Assembly (NCBI GenBank): GCA_025284135.1
Contig: GCA_025284135.1_3646.1
Source: a phage
DNA: 64,000 nucleotides
Direction: 5' to 3' (one strand)
This document shows, in pieces, positions 1-6,014 of this stretch. Every line of letters starts with the position of its first letter. The stretch's first letter is position 1. Under the pieces are notes generated by a model. That model was given only the letters and a program-made list of their open reading frames with translations, was not told where the DNA came from and did not search any database. A program made the translations under genes and the position numbers.

Positions 1-127
1 AACTAAAATAACTAAATAATAAAAAAAAATAAAAGATCTAGTACTTATGGTACTAAGTACATATACTTAACTTATGTAGAATATACTAGATCCTAAGTAC
101 CATGTTTTAAATTTATTACTTTCTATA

Positions 128-365
128 GGTAGTGTCGGCCCTTCATTGGCACTCGCCTACGAGGGGCGAGATGCCGGGCCTCCATAGTGCACACAATAAC
201 AGAAGTGCATACATGCAGGACTGTTAACATGTGTGGGAGCGAAGCGATAGCGCAGGCCAAAGGCCGAGCACTAATGTGGACCACCGACGAAAGCTTGCCA
301 GCGCCGGAAGGAGTCGGTTGAGAGCCTCCCGCGCGAGTTCGGATAAAGTTTATGTGTGGAAACTG
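128..365 (+). other. GC-rich noncoding element A (candidate structured RNA or cis element), homologous to 1640-1875
   Basis: Locally GC-rich with no convincing ORF; multiple hairpins (e.g. CTCGCC..GGCGAG); shares ordered motifs ATAGTGCAC, ACATG, GTTAACA, GAGCGAAGCG, AGGCC with element B. Confidence 0.35.
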
Positions 366-495
366 ACAAGAAGGTCCCTAAATCGCTCCACAGCTATATA
401 AACTATACCAAGTAAGGCAATCGCACCAGTTTGATAGAAAAGCTCGTTACAAAGCGATACAGTGAGTTTTTCTATAACTTGAAGAGGAGGCTGCT

Positions 496-1074
496 ATGAG
501 TTCACGCAAAGATGCCCGTGAAAAGATTGCAAAACGTTATCAGGATGAAGAACAGATGGAGAAAACTTTCAAGTGGAAGCCAGGTTTCCAGCGTAATCAT
601 TCTAACGCTCGTGATCGTAAGCATCCGGATAAGTGGTTAACACCGCCAAATGATGGCATGCAGGTTGGTGATGAGAAGGAGCTGTCACCTGGAAAAGATG
701 GCAACTACATTCGCACTAAGGAAGCAGGTCCAAAGGATGACAGCTATCTTGTAGATAAGGTTCTTGATGGTATTGATGTGGATGTTGACACTGCACGAAA
801 CCTTTTTCTTGGTTGGTATCGTACAGGGTTTTTCGACATCAAGGCTATTCGTCGTGTTTGCGATATTAAAAAGTCTGCCTATGATGATGACTCTCTACAT
901 CGCACTCTGAGACAATACTCAGAGAGATACGGTCATCCAGTCATCACTCTTGACGATATTAACGAAGTGATGTATCATGCAGAGGTTGTTGCAGGTAGAT
1001 TCGGTGATGCATATCTCGGTATTCTTTCTGCAAAAGATGAGGTAATGTTAAATAAAATTTACTATGAACGCTGA
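496..1074 (+). CDS. hypothetical protein (192 aa)
   Basis: ORF with strong RBS GAGGAGG about 7 nt upstream of ATG; no recognisable motif. Confidence 0.5.
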   Translation: MSSRKDAREKIAKRYQDEEQMEKTFKWKPGFQRNHSNARDRKHPDKWLTPPNDGMQVGDEKELSPGKDGNYIRTKEAGPKDDSYLVDKVLDGIDVDVDTARNLFLGWYRTGFFDIKAIRRVCDIKKSAYDDDSLHRTLRQYSERYGHPVITLDDINEVMYHAEVVAGRFGDAYLGILSAKDEVMLNKIYYER

Positions 1075-1084
1075 GGAGCGCTTA

Positions 1085-1273
1085 ATGAACAACCCGGTAG
1101 CAAAGAACTGTAATAAGTTCAACAAGTCTGCAATTCACACTGACAGGAAAAAGAGCTGGTCTCCTGACATTGACGAGGAGCTTGAGAGTTACTTTGAAGA
1201 CCTGGTCACTAATGCAGATGAGGTTGCGATTAAAGAATACGCAGACAGGAAGGATAAGGCCGGAATCTGTTGA
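1085..1273 (+). CDS. hypothetical small protein (start moved to ATG 1085)
   Basis: Track ORF 1064-1273; internal ATG at 1085 is preceded by GAGGAG. Confidence 0.35.
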   Translation: MNNPVAKNCNKFNKSAIHTDRKKSWSPDIDEELESYFEDLVTNADEVAIKEYADRKDKAGIC

Positions 1274-1298
1274 CAAAAATAGTGTTACCTGATAAGAT
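1270..1298 (+). promoter_or_regulatory. sigma70-like promoter TTGACA-N17-TAAGAT
   Basis: Consensus -35 and near-consensus -10 with 17-nt spacer upstream of ORF 1350. Confidence 0.45.
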
Positions 1299-1349
1299 CT
1301 GCAATACGATGTGATGCAATTTTAACTTACGAGGTCTACAGGTAATGCT

Positions 1350-1592
1350 ATGTTTAAGGTTAAGCTCGTTTTTCGTTCCATGAATGAGGATTATTTAGAA
1401 GATGAAGGTGAATTTCGTGCACTGGATGATGCAATAGATTTTGCCAACGACTTAGCTTGTATGAATACTGGTTATGGGTTATGCTGTTGGGATGGTGGTG
1501 TTCAGATCGGTGATAGCAAGATCTTCTACTTCTACCCTGAGCCTGATAACAAACAAATTAAGTATGTTTTATTTATTTGTGCTTTACAATGA
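1350..1592 (+). CDS. hypothetical small protein (80 aa)
   Basis: ORF downstream of promoter-like element; no known motif. Confidence 0.4.
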   Translation: MFKVKLVFRSMNEDYLEDEGEFRALDDAIDFANDLACMNTGYGLCCWDGGVQIGDSKIFYFYPEPDNKQIKYVLFICALQ

Positions 1593-1639
1593 GGTTGTTT
1601 TCGTGTATCATGATGAATATCCAATTTAAAGATGAATTT

Positions 1640-1875
1640 GATGGCTTTATCTCCGGATGCTTTGAAACAGGGTTCGGAGAAGGCTGAGTTCCCCTTAGAG
1701 GGCTTGATAGTGCACCACACTTAAAATGGTAGGGGGCAGCCAGCACATGACGATGTGACCCCAGCCAACCTGTAACAAGGTCGAGCCGAAGCGCGGGTAA
1801 TAGGCCTCTGGTAACCCACTTGTTGGGTCTTGCTGGTCCAGGACGCTGGACAAGTCGCAGGGAATATCTCCCTGC
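1640..1875 (+). other. GC-rich noncoding element B (candidate structured RNA or cis element), homologous to 128-365
   Basis: Same ordered motifs as element A (ATAGTGCACCACAC, ACATG, GTAACA, GAGCCGAAGCG, AGGCC); minus-strand ORFs here look compositional only. Confidence 0.35.
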
Positions 1876-1882
1876 GGCGAAC

Positions 1883-1911
1883 TTGACAATCAGTATTTGC
1901 TATGATAAAAT
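1883..1911 (+). promoter_or_regulatory. sigma70-like promoter TTGACA-N17-TAAAAT
   Basis: Consensus -35, 17-nt spacer, TAAAAT -10, about 30 nt upstream of ATG 1940. Confidence 0.5.
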
Positions 1912-1939
1912 CCACCTATCACGTGATAATGGAGGAAAC

Positions 1940-2278
1940 ATGGCGGATACAACTAAAAAGCGTCGCCGTAGAGGCAGACCTCTGAAAGAGGAGTCCAACG
2001 CCATTCAGCTAGAGAAGAACATCCTTGATATGAAGGAATCTTTTATAGCGATGGTTCCAGAAGCTCACAAAGTTTTAAGAGAGCTGATGTTGGACCCGAA
2101 AACCAAACAAAATATTCGTCAAAGCATTGCAGAGTATGTTCTTGATAAGGCAGACCGAATGCAGGAAGAATATGATGAGATGTTTGGTGAAGAGGAAGAG
2201 GTGGTAGTGGAAGAGGCTGAAAAACCAGCACCTTTTATGCCATTTACTACAGAAATACAGCCTGTTAGCAATAGCTAA
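1940..2278 (+). CDS. small AT-hook-like protein with basic N-terminus and acidic C-terminus (start moved to ATG 1940)
   Basis: Track ORF 1820-2278 runs through the promoter; ATG 1940 has RBS GGAGG; N-terminus KKRRRRGRPLKEE contains an RGRP AT-hook-like core; C-terminus EEEEVVVEEAE. Confidence 0.5.
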   Translation: MADTTKKRRRRGRPLKEESNAIQLEKNILDMKESFIAMVPEAHKVLRELMLDPKTKQNIRQSIAEYVLDKADRMQEEYDEMFGEEEEVVVEEAEKPAPFMPFTTEIQPVSNS

Positions 2279-2287
2279 AATATTTTC

Positions 2288-2316
2288 TTGACAAACTTTG
2301 CTTAACAGTGTAATAT
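2288..2316 (+). promoter_or_regulatory. sigma70-like promoter TTGACA-N17-TAATAT upstream of tRNA cluster
   Basis: Consensus -35 with 17-nt spacer and TAATAT -10 about 60 nt before the first tRNA. Confidence 0.5.
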
Positions 2317-2374
2317 TGTAAACATGGTCTCCCACCTTTTCTGGCGGCTCAGGTGTAAAAGAAAGCCACCCAGT

Positions 2375-2449
2375 GCCCTGTTAGCTTAGTGGATAAAGCA
2401 GCGGCCTTCTAAGCCGTTGACACTGGTTCGAGTCCAGTACGGGGTGCCA
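2375..2449 (+). tRNA. tRNA-Arg (anticodon TCT)
   Basis: Hand-folded cloverleaf: acceptor GCCCTGT/ACGGGGT (2 GU pairs), anticodon stem GCGGC/GCCGT with loop CTTCTAA, T-arm ACTGG-TTCGAGT-CCAGT, encoded CCA. Confidence 0.6.
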
Positions 2450-2579
2450 AGTTCTTTTTAATGTAGCTTACTTTAGCAGAGTAAATCTTCGGCAAGTGGC
2501 GGTAACCACTTTACCGATACCTCATAGTTAGTGGTGAGAACACTAGCTATTTTAAAAAGAATTTAAATATTAGTATTTA

Positions 2580-2667
2580 GGTGAGTTAATTCCGTAGGGG
2601 TAGCGGGGCAGACTGTAAATCTGTTATCATTGCGATTCGGGTGGTTCGACTCCATCACTCACCACCA
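2580..2667 (+). tRNA. tRNA-Tyr (anticodon GTA), long variable arm
   Basis: Acceptor GGTGAGT/ACTCACC, anticodon loop CTGTAAA, T-loop TTCGACT, encoded CCA. Confidence 0.6.
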
Positions 2668-2781
2668 AATTTATATTTTTAGATGCATAAATCATACAGA
2701 TAATGGCATTGATATTTATCGTCGTTTATACTAGTCACTAACTGCTCGAAAATCAGTGTCATTATCAGTATTGTTTATAAA

Positions 2782-2872
2782 AGAGGGTAGGGAGCAATGG
2801 TGCTCAAGCGGTCTTGAAAACCGTCCCGTTGAGGATGACTCGATGATGGTTCGATTCCATTACCCTCTGCCA
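2782..2872 (+). tRNA. tRNA-Ser (anticodon TGA), long variable arm
   Basis: Acceptor AGAGGGT/ACCCTCT, anticodon loop CTTGAAA, T-arm GATGG-TTCGATT-CCATT, encoded CCA. Confidence 0.6.
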
Positions 2873-2970
2873 TATTGTTGACCTTGTAATTAAGCGAAAG
2901 CCGGAAGCAGAACCGGATTATCAAATGTTACAGTCGTCATCGCCGACTAGCAACATGGTCAACATGCTGA

Positions 2971-3067
2971 GCTAGGTAAGCCCTTTGGCAAGGGCGAGGA
3001 TTTTTAATCCTGAAAATAGACGAGGTAGTCGTTGAATACATAGATGGTTCGATTCCATCACCTAGCA
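2971..3067 (+). tRNA. atypical tRNA-like gene (about 97 nt; anticodon-loop candidate TTTTTAA = UUU/Lys; about 30-nt variable region)
   Basis: Perfect acceptor pairing GCTAGGT/ACCTAGC, D-arm GCCC-TTTGGCAA-GGGC, T-arm GATGG-TTCGATT-CCATC, but only a 4-bp anticodon stem and an extra hairpin ACGA-GGTAG-TCGT; no encoded CCA. Confidence 0.35.
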
Positions 3068-3074
3068 CCTTTTT

Positions 3075-3150
3075 GCTGATGTAGCACAATTGGTAGTGCA
3101 ATTGATTTGTAATCAATAGGTTGCAGGTTCAAGTCCTGCCATCAGCACCA
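3075..3150 (+). tRNA. tRNA-Thr (anticodon TGT)
   Basis: Acceptor GCTGATG/CATCAGC, D-stem GCAC/GTGC, anticodon stem ATTGA/TCAAT with loop TTTGTAA, T-arm GCAGG-TTCAAGT-CCTGC, encoded CCA. Confidence 0.7.
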
Positions 3151-3151
3151 A

Positions 3152-3226
3152 GGCCCTGTAGCTGGAAGGTTCAAGCAAGCGACTCATAATCGCCAGACGG
3201 TGGTTCAATTCCACCCAGGGCCACCA
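3152..3226 (+). tRNA. tRNA-Met or Ile2 (anticodon CAT)
   Basis: Acceptor GGCCCTG/CAGGGCC, anticodon loop CTCATAA, T-arm GGTGG-TTCAATT-CCACC, encoded CCA. Confidence 0.65.
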
Positions 3227-3237
3227 AATAGTAGATA

Positions 3238-3314
3238 CTCCGCGTAGCTCAGCTTGGTAGAGCGCCTGATTTGGGATCAGGAGGTCGAGTGTTCGAATCA
3301 CTCCGTGGAGACCA
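3238..3314 (+). tRNA. tRNA-Pro (anticodon TGG)
   Basis: Acceptor CTCCGCG/CGTGGAG (1 GU), D-arm TAGCTCAGCTTGGTAGAGCG, anticodon stem CCTGA/TCAGG with loop TTTGGGA, T-loop TTCGAAT, encoded CCA. Confidence 0.65.
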
Positions 3315-3360
3315 CTTTCAGTTATACTTTAAACATATATAAACAAAAGGAACCTTTAAA

Positions 3361-3630
3361 ATGTATACACTTAAAATTGTAGAGCGTGTGAATCCAACCC
3401 ATACCGTAGATTTTCGTGACGATTTCAATCCTCTGGCTGTAAATCTTCGAGAGTCATATCATGAACTCAGCTGCGATGCAGTGGTGGTCTTTTTTGAAGA
3501 CAACTCTGAAGGGGCGGTAGCTTGTGTTGTTGATAGTGAGCAGAAGTTTTATATTTACAGAGATGTAGATGCATACTTGATGAATGAAAATGCAGTTACT
3601 GTTAGAATCATCCACCGAGTGCCTCGATAA
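3361..3630 (+). CDS. hypothetical protein (89 aa)
   Basis: ORF with AAGGA RBS; followed by a terminator-like hairpin. Confidence 0.45.
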   Translation: MYTLKIVERVNPTHTVDFRDDFNPLAVNLRESYHELSCDAVVVFFEDNSEGAVACVVDSEQKFYIYRDVDAYLMNENAVTVRIIHRVPR

Positions 3631-3686
3631 GTATTAGTCTCCTTTTAGTTAGTTTCGATCTATTTAGGTTACTCAATTTTAACCCG

Positions 3687-3717
3687 CCCCGTTAGCTGTA
3701 TAGCTGCGGGGTTTTTT
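3687..3717 (+). terminator. rho-independent terminator-like hairpin
   Basis: CCCCG..CGGGG stem followed by TTTTTT. Confidence 0.45.
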
Positions 3718-3735
3718 CGTTTCTGGAGCCTTAAA

Positions 3736-4134
3736 ATGATTTCAGGTTTAACATGGCTTAGTAGGTATAGAGGGATCATAAAAGGTTTAGTTTTTGCAGC
3801 GGCTATAGGTACAGCTTATCTTGGGGCCGTGTATTGGTTTAACTCTAAGCTCAATGATGCTTATCAGGAAGGTGTGTCAGCAACAGAGTTAAAGTGGGAA
3901 CGGATCCTTGACCAACAACAAAAGCAGGCCGACAAAATTAAAATGGGCCACGCAGAGGAGGTTAAAAACCTTGAAAAATCCCTTTCTGATCTACAGGATA
4001 AATTAAATATAGCTGAGAGGGCAGGTAGAGAAAAGCAGATTATCTACCTCCAATCACCTGAAGGTAAGAAGTCAACACTTCCTGATCAGCTTATAGATAT
4101 TTATAATGAGAGTATCAATCAGGAGGATCGATGA
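3736..4134 (+). CDS. i-spanin-like protein (N-terminal TM helix plus periplasmic coiled coil)
   Basis: N-terminal hydrophobic segment GLVFAAAIGTAYLGAVYWF then a charged helical region; start of next gene overlaps its stop. Confidence 0.5.
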   Translation: MISGLTWLSRYRGIIKGLVFAAAIGTAYLGAVYWFNSKLNDAYQEGVSATELKWERILDQQQKQADKIKMGHAEEVKNLEKSLSDLQDKLNIAERAGREKQIIYLQSPEGKKSTLPDQLIDIYNESINQEDR

Positions 4135-4418
4135 GAGTTGCCACACTGTTTATTGCGTGCTTGTTATTATGTGGGTGTGCAACCAGCGTTGAGAGAGAAT
4201 ACAAGATTGACCCTCCGGATGTAGGAAGGTTGATTGTTAAACCCCCAGAAGGTGCCATGAAACCACCTGCTAAAGCTATGCCTTTGAAGAAAGGTGCGCC
4301 AGATGCAGTGAATTCTGGCATTATGAGGGATAATAATCTGTCTTGTAGCAATGATAGAGCTAAATTGATCATTTTGCAAGACTATATTAGAACACTGTTT
4401 CCAAAGGAGAGAGGTTAA
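4131..4418 (+). CDS. o-spanin-like lipoprotein (proline-rich)
   Basis: Signal-like N-terminus MRVATLFIACLLLCGCA with Cys at lipobox-like position; Pro-rich mature region (KPPEGAMKPPAKAMP); overlaps upstream gene by 4 nt. Confidence 0.5.
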   Translation: MRVATLFIACLLLCGCATSVEREYKIDPPDVGRLIVKPPEGAMKPPAKAMPLKKGAPDAVNSGIMRDNNLSCSNDRAKLIILQDYIRTLFPKERG

Positions 4419-5965
4419 TGTCTAAGATTTACGGACCGTGTTCTGAAAAGCAGAAGATGATCCTCGAAAACGATGCAGATATCTTGGTAATCGGCGGTGC
4501 CGCAGGGTCTGGCAAGTCGTTCCTCTTGCAGTTGATGCCACTTAAAATTATTGATGACCCCCACAGCTCTGTGGTTATGTTCCGAAGAACAACCCCACAG
4601 TTAGAAGGTGAGGGTGGACTATGGCCTAAAGCAGTAGCTATTTATAGTGATCTGCCTGAAAACATTAAGCCAAAGTTCAGAGAGAAGGATCATAAGTTCA
4701 TTTTTCCACGGTTTGATCCGAACACTGGTAAGTGGGATAGAAGCAAAAAGGGAGCTGTTGTAAAATACTGCCATATGGAGTATGTACAAGATAAGCTTAA
4801 CCATCAGGGGCTTGAGTACACCATGGTTTGCTTCGATGAGGGCACGCAGTTCGAATGGGAGCAGATAGACTACCTGATGTCTCGTCTGCGATCTCAGTCA
4901 AAGTATCCATCAAGAATGGTTATCAGCTGTAACCCCGATTCAGAACACATGCTTGCCAAACTGGTTAGATGGTGGTTGGACGATGAAGGGTATCCAGATC
5001 CGGAGAAATGCGGTAAGAAAAGATATTTTATCCGACGCGACGGTGAATTTATCTGGGGGGACTCTAAAGAAGAGTTGATAGAGAAATACACCACGGTTAA
5101 CGGACTTGGTGTGGAGATCAAGCCAAGACCGTTGTCATTCTCGTTTATAGGCGCAACAATATTCGATAATCCTGTTTGCTTAAGAGACAACCCAGAATAC
5201 CTTGCTTTCCTTGAAGGTCTGCCGGAACTGGAAAAAGCTCAGCTTCTTCATGGTAACTGGTTTGCAAAGCCTGAGGGCGCAAACTATTTTCAAAGATCTT
5301 TCCTTCGTGATGCCGATAGAGTACCCCTTGGATCAGTATCTTGCAGGGCATGGGATAAGGCAGGAACCGAGAGAACTTCCGGTAATAAATTTCCTGACTT
5401 TACCGCCAGTGTTAAGGTAAGTAAAGATAGCGACGGCTTTTATTACCTGTCCGGTGATTATTGTCCTGAGAACGTGGATGACGGGAGGTATTCCACAGGC
5501 CTGGAAGGCAAGTTCTGTAAAAAGGCTGGTGAACGAGATGTGATCATCAGGAAACAGGCGCAGTTTGATGGTGATGATTGTATAATCGTATTCTCTGTGG
5601 ACCCCGGTCAGGCAGGTAAGAGTGAGTTCTTAACCTCATCCAGATCCTTGCTCGCAGAAGGGTTCAGGGTTGAAGAAGACCCAATGCCTTCCAACAAGTC
5701 TAAACTGACAAGGTTCTCACCTTTTGCCAATCTTGCCCAACAAGGGATGGTGAGGATTGTAAAATCCAGTTTCCATCCTGATACTCTGGAAGCATTTCTG
5801 ACCGAACTTGAAAAATTCAACGGGGAAAGATCAACATTTAACAGAAAAGACGACTGGGCCGACTGTGTAGCTTCTGCGATTAATTTCCTGGAGAAAGAGG
5901 AGGTAGCACTTCCTTGTGTGATTCCATCAATCTCCTCACCTTCTATGTTCAAGCGTTTTATCTAA
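4418..5965 (+). CDS. terL: terminase large subunit
   Basis: Walker A GGAAGSGKS, Walker B-like MVCFDEGTQ, C-terminal nuclease-like region with acidic residues (VFSVDPGQAGKSEF); sits immediately before the portal gene. Confidence 0.85.
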   Translation: MSKIYGPCSEKQKMILENDADILVIGGAAGSGKSFLLQLMPLKIIDDPHSSVVMFRRTTPQLEGEGGLWPKAVAIYSDLPENIKPKFREKDHKFIFPRFDPNTGKWDRSKKGAVVKYCHMEYVQDKLNHQGLEYTMVCFDEGTQFEWEQIDYLMSRLRSQSKYPSRMVISCNPDSEHMLAKLVRWWLDDEGYPDPEKCGKKRYFIRRDGEFIWGDSKEELIEKYTTVNGLGVEIKPRPLSFSFIGATIFDNPVCLRDNPEYLAFLEGLPELEKAQLLHGNWFAKPEGANYFQRSFLRDADRVPLGSVSCRAWDKAGTERTSGNKFPDFTASVKVSKDSDGFYYLSGDYCPENVDDGRYSTGLEGKFCKKAGERDVIIRKQAQFDGDDCIIVFSVDPGQAGKSEFLTSSRSLLAEGFRVEEDPMPSNKSKLTRFSPFANLAQQGMVRIVKSSFHPDTLEAFLTELEKFNGERSTFNRKDDWADCVASAINFLEKEEVALPCVIPSISSPSMFKRFI

Positions 5966-6014
5966 GTGTTGCCAATCTTAATTAGATGTGGTAGAATAGA
6001 GTAATCGGAGATAC

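Follow-up and report, generated by a model that had tools for sequence, protein, structure and literature searches.

A conserved, structured noncoding RNA with a three-way-junction core near the tRNA genes of vequintaviruses and other phages

Background

Comparative discovery has brought to light many covarying motifs in the intergenic DNA of phages to which no function has been assigned. A 2023 catalogue lists 10,006 csRNAs of viruses and phages (PMC10690425), and Rfam contains phage motifs of the same kind. For a stable RNA in the place of a tRNA gene, the nearest analogue is provided by rnaC and rnaD of T4 (species 1 and 2), structured non-tRNA RNAs of 120-140 nt that are co-transcribed with the phage tRNAs; the function of both is still unknown. 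The tRNA regions of phages are themselves counter-defence loci (PMC13096335). Further points of comparison are the Y RNAs (YrlA) and decoy ncRNAs, which are modular, with a conserved protein-binding module and a variable periphery, are sometimes encoded by phages and have tRNA-like associations, and the RNA anti-CRISPRs and solitary repeats, which are small noncoding hairpin decoys in phage intergenic regions. Finally, the hammerhead and the purine aptamer are built from three short covarying helices with conserved junction strands and an invariant core.

Here we report on a GC-rich element, in the following element B, in a phage DNA of 64,000 nt (the whole stretch analysed, below called the window). 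By its sequence the window is that of an rV5-like coliphage of the genus Vequintavirus: over positions 1300-2300 it shares 99.7% identity with Escherichia phage BP9 and ~98.7% with rV5. Element B is a conserved, structured noncoding RNA of the plus strand and belongs to an undescribed phage family found near tRNA genes; it is unrelated to a second GC-rich block of the window, element A. In this paper we document its noncoding status, its conservation, its strand and helices, its distribution, its association with tRNA genes and its lack of relation to A.

Results

Comparison with described RNAs

Element B resembles the catalogued csRNAs and the phage motifs of Rfam in being a covarying motif of phage intergenic DNA that was found by comparison and has no function assigned. 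A B-type element could be among the 10,006 csRNAs of the catalogue (PMC10690425); from the Rfam motifs it differs in being absent from Rfam 15. With the 4,227 models of that release, which include tRNA, RNase P, tmRNA, 6S, YrlA, known ribozymes, riboswitches and TwoAYGGAY, no match to B was obtained at E <= 1 (window positions 1-6000 scanned), and none at E <= 1 for the T4, Psg and Vibrio types of the element; at E <= 10 the interval 1600-1920 returned only traJ_5, with 16.5 bits on the minus strand. In the literature we found no paper that contains the core sequence or describes the element.

With the phage tRNAs, B has in common its neighbourhood, its orientation and a putative early sigma-70 expression, and tRNA genes hold its slot in sister genera. 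It is nevertheless not a tRNA, either by ARAGORN, which places tRNAs only from 2375 on, or by RF00005 (0 matches in 1600-1920 at E <= 10). A decayed tRNA was considered on account of a 12/13 match between B and the tRNA at 2580-2664, which is not significant because 61 of 1000 shuffles score as well. That tRNA (Tyr in the rV5 annotation) is detected by Rfam and missed by ARAGORN. The CUGUAA common to the core and the tRNA-Tyr anticodon loop is at chance level. To rnaC and rnaD there is no relation in sequence or structure: the best score of our covariance model of the core (R1) in the tRNA region of T4 is 8.9 bits, the T4 copy of the family lies ~6 kb away from them, between denV and vs.8, and rnaC has, by reading of its sequence, a tRNA-like 3' T-arm that B lacks.

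A scaffold or decoy of the Y RNA type is the working model that we propose for B, which differs from YrlA in lacking a tRNA-like domain and a Ro/Rsr or RtcB context and in failing to match the Rfam YrlA model. As to the hairpin decoys, the sequence GAGUUCCCC of B equals the first 9 nt of the E. coli type I-E CRISPR repeat. Mimicry of this repeat was rejected: the likeness ends after 9 nt and is equalled by 32 of 1000 shuffles, with many comparisons uncorrected, the 6-bp hairpin of the repeat is not kept in B, and GAGUUCCCC is absent from the second copy of module M1 (see below) and from the rest of the family. The I-F repeat has no match to B.

Compared with the hammerhead and the purine aptamer, B has an unrelated core (no CUGAUGA/GAAA), no model match and no apparent expression platform. 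Of the features of a riboswitch, a terminator is absent, a platform sequestering the Shine-Dalgarno (SD) sequence was not seen by eye, and a promoter stands between B and ORF74. Several other candidates were likewise discarded. A twister-like CCCAAGC..CGG..UAA and a hammerhead core have no model support. A TwoAYGGAY element or CsrA sponge, suggested by GGA-loop hairpins in the 3' half of T4-type copies, has no Rfam match, and the feature is absent from B. The ncRNA arrays of UG27 reverse transcriptases (bioRxiv 10.64898/2026.09.22.753630) have different motifs, and these phages carry no reverse transcriptase.

Setting and coding status of block B

A preliminary description of this DNA had delimited a GC-rich noncoding block at 1640-1875, between ORF 1350-1592 and a promoter TTGACA-N17-TAAAAT, and both the block and its location are borne out. 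GC content is 0.53-0.59 over ~1650-1900 against 0.25-0.45 in the flanks, ORF 1350-1592 is gp071 of rV5, and the promoter is real, with an 11/12 match and an extended -10 TG; it is annotated in rV5 as P74 and is the best sigma-70 match within the first 3.5 kb of the window (coordinates of all features are given in Table 1). In the rV5 annotation, block B thus falls between gp071 and P74, which is followed by ORF74 (1940-2278); the tRNA cluster (2375-3314) lies farther downstream. The boundaries of the block need correction, its first 48 nt (1640-1687) being the 3' end of a probable micro-ORF and the body of the RNA extending over ~1686-1884.

Table 1. Features of block B and its borders in the window
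Feature	Position	Strand	Sequence or parts	Basis and remarks
Promoter-like site	1583-1611	+	TTTACA-N17-TATCAT	10/12 match
Probable 32-aa micro-ORF	1589-1687	+	MRLFSCIMMNIQFKDEFDGFISGCFETGFGEG, then stop	annotated CDS in phages B9-1 and NHEP1
5' hairpin	1652-1681	+	CUCCGGAU...(G)UUCGGAG	MFE fold; rV5 clade only
Body of noncoding RNA B	1686-1884	+	GAGUUCCCC to GCGAAC	abuts the -35 of P74
Module M1	1691-1731	+		predicted structure; vequintavirus-specific
Stem Pa with enclosed hairpin Pb	1732-1762	+	Pa GGGG/CCCC; Pb CACAU-GACG-AUGUG	between-clade compensation
Family-defining three-way junction	1756-1812	+		model R1, 60.6 bits, E = 9e-16
3' hairpins, rV5 clade	1814-1876	+		stems kept, loops vary; U-A/U-G and C-G/U-G changes
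3' hairpin	1814-1828	+	ACCCA-CUUGU-UGGGU	
3' hairpin	1829-1854	+	CUUG...UCCAG-GACG-CUGGA...CAAG	
3' hairpin	1856-1876	+	CGCAGGGA-AUAUC-UCCCUGCG	
Consensus sigma-70 promoter P74 of ORF74	1883-1911	+		bounds RNA B, not part of the RNA

Block B was kept in all of the Vequintavirus records found (119/119). Its body aligns with syntenic elements in a sister clade of divergent vequintaviruses, known from metagenomic and IMG/VR contigs (L029, L041, L052, L087, L170, L175, L178 and L188), in which the order is as in rV5: gp071 homologue, element, promoter and ORF74 homologue.

The block is noncoding because three 1-nt indels, each at its own place in the block, distinguish close strains and, in the sister clade, every frame across it is interrupted by stops, so that no open frame survives. 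Five overlapping ORFs across the block had no Pfam match at E <= 1, and no protein homology was found there for any ORF spanning the block. The minus-strand ORFs 1695-1889 and 1721-1915, earlier taken to be compositional only, are indeed not genes, having no Pfam match and carrying indels between strains; the same holds for the upstream part of ORF 1820-2278, which is noncoding, the real start of ORF74 being at 1940.

The ORF at 1589-1687 probably encodes a genuine micro-protein or leader peptide immediately 5' of RNA B, as judged from its sequence, and is outside the body of the RNA. Its start overlaps the stop of gp071 (ATGA), substitutions among strains are mostly synonymous in its frame (by reading of the sequences), and its KDEFDGF core persists in the sister clade as an 8-aa peptide, MKDEFDGF followed by a stop. 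A 21-mer at 1629-1649, AAAGATGAATTTGATGGCTTT, is identical in both vequintavirus clades, while its flanks have diverged by ~33%; it lies 3' of the putative promoter in one clade and 5' of the promoter in the other. The coding of KDEFDGF may be the cause of this identity; the nucleotide conservation is unusually high.

Promoters and transcript ends

Two sites could, by their sequence, lead transcription into B. The promoter-like site that precedes the micro-ORF could start a transcript running into the element, and readthrough could come from promoter P75 (1270-1298), farther upstream. In the sister clade, a promoter TTGACA-N17-TATACT (11/12 match and TG) stands immediately before GUUCCCC, the conserved 5' end of the RNA (L087, 453-481), and is stronger than the site of the rV5 clade.

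On the plus strand no terminator-like site was found in 1300-2400, and B has no GC-rich hairpin followed by a U-tract (PeSL-type). The 3' hairpins are not an intrinsic terminator because a U-tract is absent after them, and since B is without a 3' terminator, a discrete RNA would require processing.

Near-consensus TTGACA-N17 promoters occur at 1270-1298, 1883-1911 and 2288-2316, two of the three with an extended -10 TG. Each stands ahead of a small early gene or of the tRNA cluster, a modular arrangement of promoter and gene that the sister clade shares.

The three-way-junction core

The family is defined by a core of ACCUGUAAnAAGGUCGAG, which is invariant, followed by a 3-bp hairpin and GGUAA; a short helix, P1, closes it. 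This signature is found in B. Here P1 is formed by CCA (1765-1767) with U-GG (1801, 1803-1804), and P2 by ACCU (1768-1771) with AGGU (1778-1781) around the loop GUAACA; J2/3 is CGA (1782-1784), P3 is GCC/GC (1785-1794) and J3/1 is GGGUAA (1795-1800), with one G more than the GGUAA of the family. The alignment of 37 distinct copies reveals a common plan of P1, P2 (ACCU/AGGU with GUAAnA), CGA, a 3-bp P3, GGUAA and the 3' strand of P1, in which P1 is made of A-U, U-A, U-G and C-G pairs and P3 of C-G, U-A, G-C and A-U pairs.

Covariation among the 37 copies is 0.147, compared to 0.064 in shuffled alignments, and none of 500 shuffles reaches the value. With 56 distinct sequences, realigned and thereby fitted to model R1, it is 0.197 versus 0.067 (again 0/500), 86% of the cells are paired and six of the ten pairs have changed on both sides, the covariation of P2 resting on one compensatory change. 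This sole compensation in P2 (GCCU/AGGC, A-U to G-C) is found in the degenerate second copy of a 177-kb T4-like contig (L144). With the exception of that copy, a relaxed pattern scan found P2 (ACC...GGU) and the junction strands unchanged in all true members. The U-G and G-U pairs fit the plus strand only, being A-C mismatches on the other strand.

In every lineage examined, a stem ends 0-4 nt 5' of P1 and has a different sequence each time: GGGAA/UUCCC in T4, GAAUGU/ACAUUC in Psg, UGUGUAU/AUACACA in L091, GCGGC/GCCGC in L046, and Pa/Pb in B. A pseudoknot between the GUAA of the loop and a downstream UUAC was rejected as a family feature, since by inspection it is present in some lineages and absent from T4 and rV5. 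Some T4-like phages have the element twice, either in tandem or on both sides of an internal-protein gene, as in L144 (5089-5255, minus strand) and L015 (1009-1586); the degenerate second copy of L144 has J2/3 = CA and P2 = GCCU/AGGC.

Structures outside the core

Block B folds better than its shuffles on the plus strand (z = -2.5) and less so on the minus strand (z = -1.7). The helices around the core are specific to B and rest on two clades only. The place of the 5' hairpin is taken by the promoter in the sister clade. Within the rV5 clade, both bases of one pair of this hairpin differ in L042 (C-G to U-A), and L067 shows G-C to G-U and U-G to U-A changes. Module M1 comprises, in order, a hairpin CCC(C)-UUAGA-GGG, CUUGAUAGUGC with a hairpin AGUG-CACCA-CACU, and AAAAUGGUA; its structure is predicted only, as covariation is unavailable. 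The sister clade has a second copy of M1 3' of the core. Matches to M1 in IMG/VR outside the vequintavirus clades were dismissed as chance matches in coding DNA.

Stem Pa carries an asymmetric internal loop. In the sister clade Pa is GGAAC/GUUCC and Pb is CUACG-GACG-CGUAG, which amounts to four double compensatory changes in Pb between the clades and to four or more in Pa and Pb together. Of the 3' hairpins, the one at 1814-1828 is missing from L081 (10-nt deletion). A helix closing B between its 5' and 3' ends was suggested by L052 and contradicted by L175.

Distribution of the family

Related sequence occurs in roughly 700-1,100 phage genome records. A blastn search with B returned 855 phage records. 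The full-length matches, 119 in number, are to the Vequintavirus records, and those remaining are mostly to T4-like phages, in which the similarity comprises the ~45-nt core only (window 1757-1804) at 85-89% identity; in all, the core is 85-93% identical in T4-like phages. The T4 element as query matched 1,142 records, from phages of Klebsiella, Enterobacter, Yersinia, Citrobacter, Vibrio, Pseudomonas and other hosts. The core is also present in Pseudomonas phage PsgM04F, Vibrio phage F100 and Klebsiella phage PKO111 (two copies in the latter), as well as in metagenomic and IMG/VR contigs, some of them ~47-kb and siphovirus-like. Exact-pattern scans gave 113 matches; the 54 that also have the downstream GGTAA are true members and the remainder are due to chance.

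Among 185,579 bacterial species genomes, 21 exact matches to the 18-mer were found, none of them convincing as a bacterial or prophage copy; the downstream GGTAA accompanies only one (L098), which scores 27 bits. A host-derived origin was discarded on the basis of 0 matches in 5,426 complete E. coli genomes, with a method (BLAST) that cannot report very short complementarity.

In T4 the element lies on the transcribed strand in the gap between denV and vs.8, and in T4-like phages in the gap from denV/Ip to vs.8. In phage JK38 a stop closes the frame of the vs.8 start annotated in T4, and the gene is annotated from a later ATG; the element is therefore intergenic in T4-like phages too. In T4 itself (NC_000866, 64,792-64,912; L002 5293-5413, minus strand) the frame opened at the vs.8 start as annotated runs through the element, and the sequence suggests that the true start is likely the ATG at 64,792, giving 179 aa and not 219 aa.

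Vibrio phage F100 (L013) has, at ~1000-2720, a 1.7-kb stretch in which only tiny ORFs are annotated, on both strands, with a single three-way junction (1494-1548) and several promoter-like sequences of the TTGAC type; the stretch is a possible island of noncoding RNAs. Eighteen GenBank records of 'Campylobacter phage' (MG0656xx) are ~99% identical to rV5-like coliphages over window 1300-2300, which looks like a labelling or host-assignment problem.

tRNA genes and downstream genes

The element is co-oriented with tRNA clusters, inside or near them, in at least 8 lineages. This applies to L020, L049, L065, L091, L064, L127, L134, L160 and all vequintavirus copies; in PsgM04F it stands between tRNA-Thr and tRNA-Gly. 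In five genera (Mydovirus, Seunavirus, Henunavirus, Avunavirus and Certrevirus) the ORF74 homologue lies inside a tRNA cluster, with a tRNA-Cys ~85 nt 5' of it and, in four of the five, further tRNAs upstream; the three-way junction is absent from that slot. Since these genera have tRNA-Cys, and not B, 5' of the ORF74 homologue, B occupies the position of a tRNA gene.

The downstream genes are unrelated among lineages and include vs.8 (P-loop family, phrog_1488), an internal virion protein, phrog_3330 and tRNAs, and many copies of the family lie among tRNA genes with no ORF nearby. A leader of one conserved gene was rejected, as the downstream genes differ by lineage. The preliminary suggestion of a regulatory leader of the early gene likewise fits poorly: the promoter separates B from ORF74, downstream genes vary and there are copies without an ORF.

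At 2971-3069 of the window, ARAGORN reports a 99-nt 'tRNA-???' with a 4-base anticodon (atcc), which scores 37.5 bits with the Rfam tRNA model. Odd tRNAs with 4-base anticodons also occur in L034, L091 and PVP-SE1.

Elements A and B

Element A (window 125-400) is GC-rich, with z = -2.6, and overlaps the 'gp074' ORF of rV5 at 231-401, which is probably spurious. Block B had been described as a second, homologous copy of A, and the two as diverged copies of a functional element maintained in duplicate (regulatory leader, sRNA or protein-binding site array). The functional element stands: B is a maintained noncoding element, for which 'sRNA' comes nearest, given its presence in 119/119 records, its covarying helices and its family in unrelated phages. 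The duplication does not. Local alignment of A and B scores 19 against 17.6 +/- 2.3 for dinucleotide shuffles, 287 of 1000 of which align as well, and the only shared sequence is the 9-mer ATAGTGCAC; the two are not detectably related. Model R1 has a single match in the 64-kb window, that in B, and none in A. Element A is confined to Vequintavirus, being absent from the sister clade that keeps B and having no relatives outside the genus, whereas the core of B has them. An origin of A and B by duplication of one regulatory element, with either copy acting on the early gene that follows it, thus appears highly improbable: the two blocks are alike in their high GC content, their scarcity of ORFs, a folding slightly better than that of shuffles, a location upstream of early genes and the 9-mer, but their alignment is at chance level and A lacks the three-way junction as well as a counterpart in the clade that keeps B. 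Being related neither to B nor to a family in Rfam, A may, from its predicted properties, be a separate ncRNA. A resemblance of its CCGGGCCUCCAUAGUGCA to CR-I of RNase P was rejected, no Rfam RNase P model matching A or B.

Discussion

We regard element B as an RNA that would be transcribed early, be stable and act as RNA, probably by binding a protein or as a decoy, and we assign to this reading of the sequence comparisons a probability of roughly one half. Host RNA polymerase would transcribe B early from sigma-70 promoters, within the tRNA-gene region of the phage, and B would be released, or persist, as a stable RNA. Its functional centre would be the ~45-nt three-way junction, whose helices hold the GUAAnA loop, CGA and GGUAA unpaired, with the upstream stem-loop stacked on it, and the invariant unpaired bases would offer a sequence-specific binding surface for a protein, which could come from the phage or be a host factor shared among gamma-proteobacteria; an example would be an RNA- or tRNA-targeting enzyme with B as its decoy. 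We infer, in the same vein, that B accumulates as a discrete RNA, acts in trans and has a protein partner. Against a free stable RNA stands the T4-like element, which lies ~25 nt before a start codon and is leader-like in this respect.

The most attractive specific idea is that of a decoy or inhibitor, because phage tRNA regions are counter-defence loci (PMC13096335). The CUGUAA loop and the mini-hairpin would in this case mimic part of a tRNA, e.g. the anticodon and variable arms of tRNA-Tyr, and the mimicry would absorb or block the tRNA-cleaving immune nucleases of the host. Either a new counter-defence decoy or inhibitor RNA of this kind or a new self-cleaving ribozyme for tRNA-cluster transcripts is, in our estimation, unlikely; the invariance of P2 and the junction strands would also be expected of a ribozyme core or ligand pocket.

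The main rival is a role in cis, in the processing, stability or antitermination of polycistronic early and tRNA transcripts, in which B would be a processing site, a nuclease barrier or a put-like antiterminator with no function as a free RNA. Copies that are always co-oriented with their neighbours and never have a terminator of their own would suit such a role, as would the 5'-UTR-like copies of T4-like phages, with two GGA-loop hairpins ahead of the start codon, and the position directly 5' of a promoter or of tRNA genes in three lineages. We hold it to be possible and rather doubtful: one clade has a dedicated strong promoter exactly at the 5' end of the element and another promoter after it, known nuclease barriers need far less constraint than is seen in the invariant 18-mer, and the neighbouring genes are wholly different between lineages. 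The short, variable, covarying helices with invariant junction and loop bases across very distant phages could alternatively belong to a small catalytic or ligand-binding RNA, be it a self-cleaving ribozyme that cuts tRNA or early precursors or a metabolite aptamer. Junction strands of 0, 3 and 5 nt, which fit a compact three-way junction of the family-C type, point the same way. We nonetheless think this quite improbable, as no known model matches, neither a terminator nor (by eye) a pairing that would sequester the SD sequence is present, copies among tRNA genes have no ORF to regulate, and helices of 3-4 bp are very short for autonomous catalysis.

An action at the level of DNA, as a protein-binding array, a recombination or homing site or a mobile cassette, is very unlikely. 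It would account for an invariant 18-mer in the hyperplastic regions of T4-like genomes, sometimes in two copies, and for a patchy distribution that suggests horizontal transfer, but not for compensatory changes that keep pairing, for strand-specific G-U pairs or for a constant orientation to transcription, and no inverted or direct-repeat termini were seen. Hardly any weight falls on the idea that block B is a compositional artefact, a short protein gene or a set of decayed tRNA genes without present function. A minus-strand frame without stops runs through the block in all rV5-clade strains examined, some annotators call ORFs in it, and the sister genera have tRNA genes in this slot; yet protein homology is lacking, the three 1-nt indels would put any frame out of register and in the sister clade all frames contain stops, no tRNA model matches even at E <= 10, and decay is incompatible with the near-identity of the core across phage families.

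Conclusions

Within the window, blocks A and B are different things. For annotation, the findings allow spurious ORFs to be removed, among them 'hypothetical proteins' of the rV5 clade and the first 40 codons of T4 vs.8, and covariance model R1 is available to mark the element, which in T4 is at present hidden inside the apparently mis-started ORF vs.8. If a stable RNA acting as such is the correct reading of B, an RNA with an almost invariant 45-nt core has been left unannotated in several hundred sequenced phage genomes; should the more specific counter-defence or ribozyme reading hold, T4 would carry an unannotated functional RNA. That the element lies in tRNA regions of virulent phages unrelated to one another deserves attention, since these regions are now recognised as counter-defence loci, and on the reading preferred here B would be a concrete candidate, accessible to testing, for a role played at the RNA level in taking over the host or evading its immunity.
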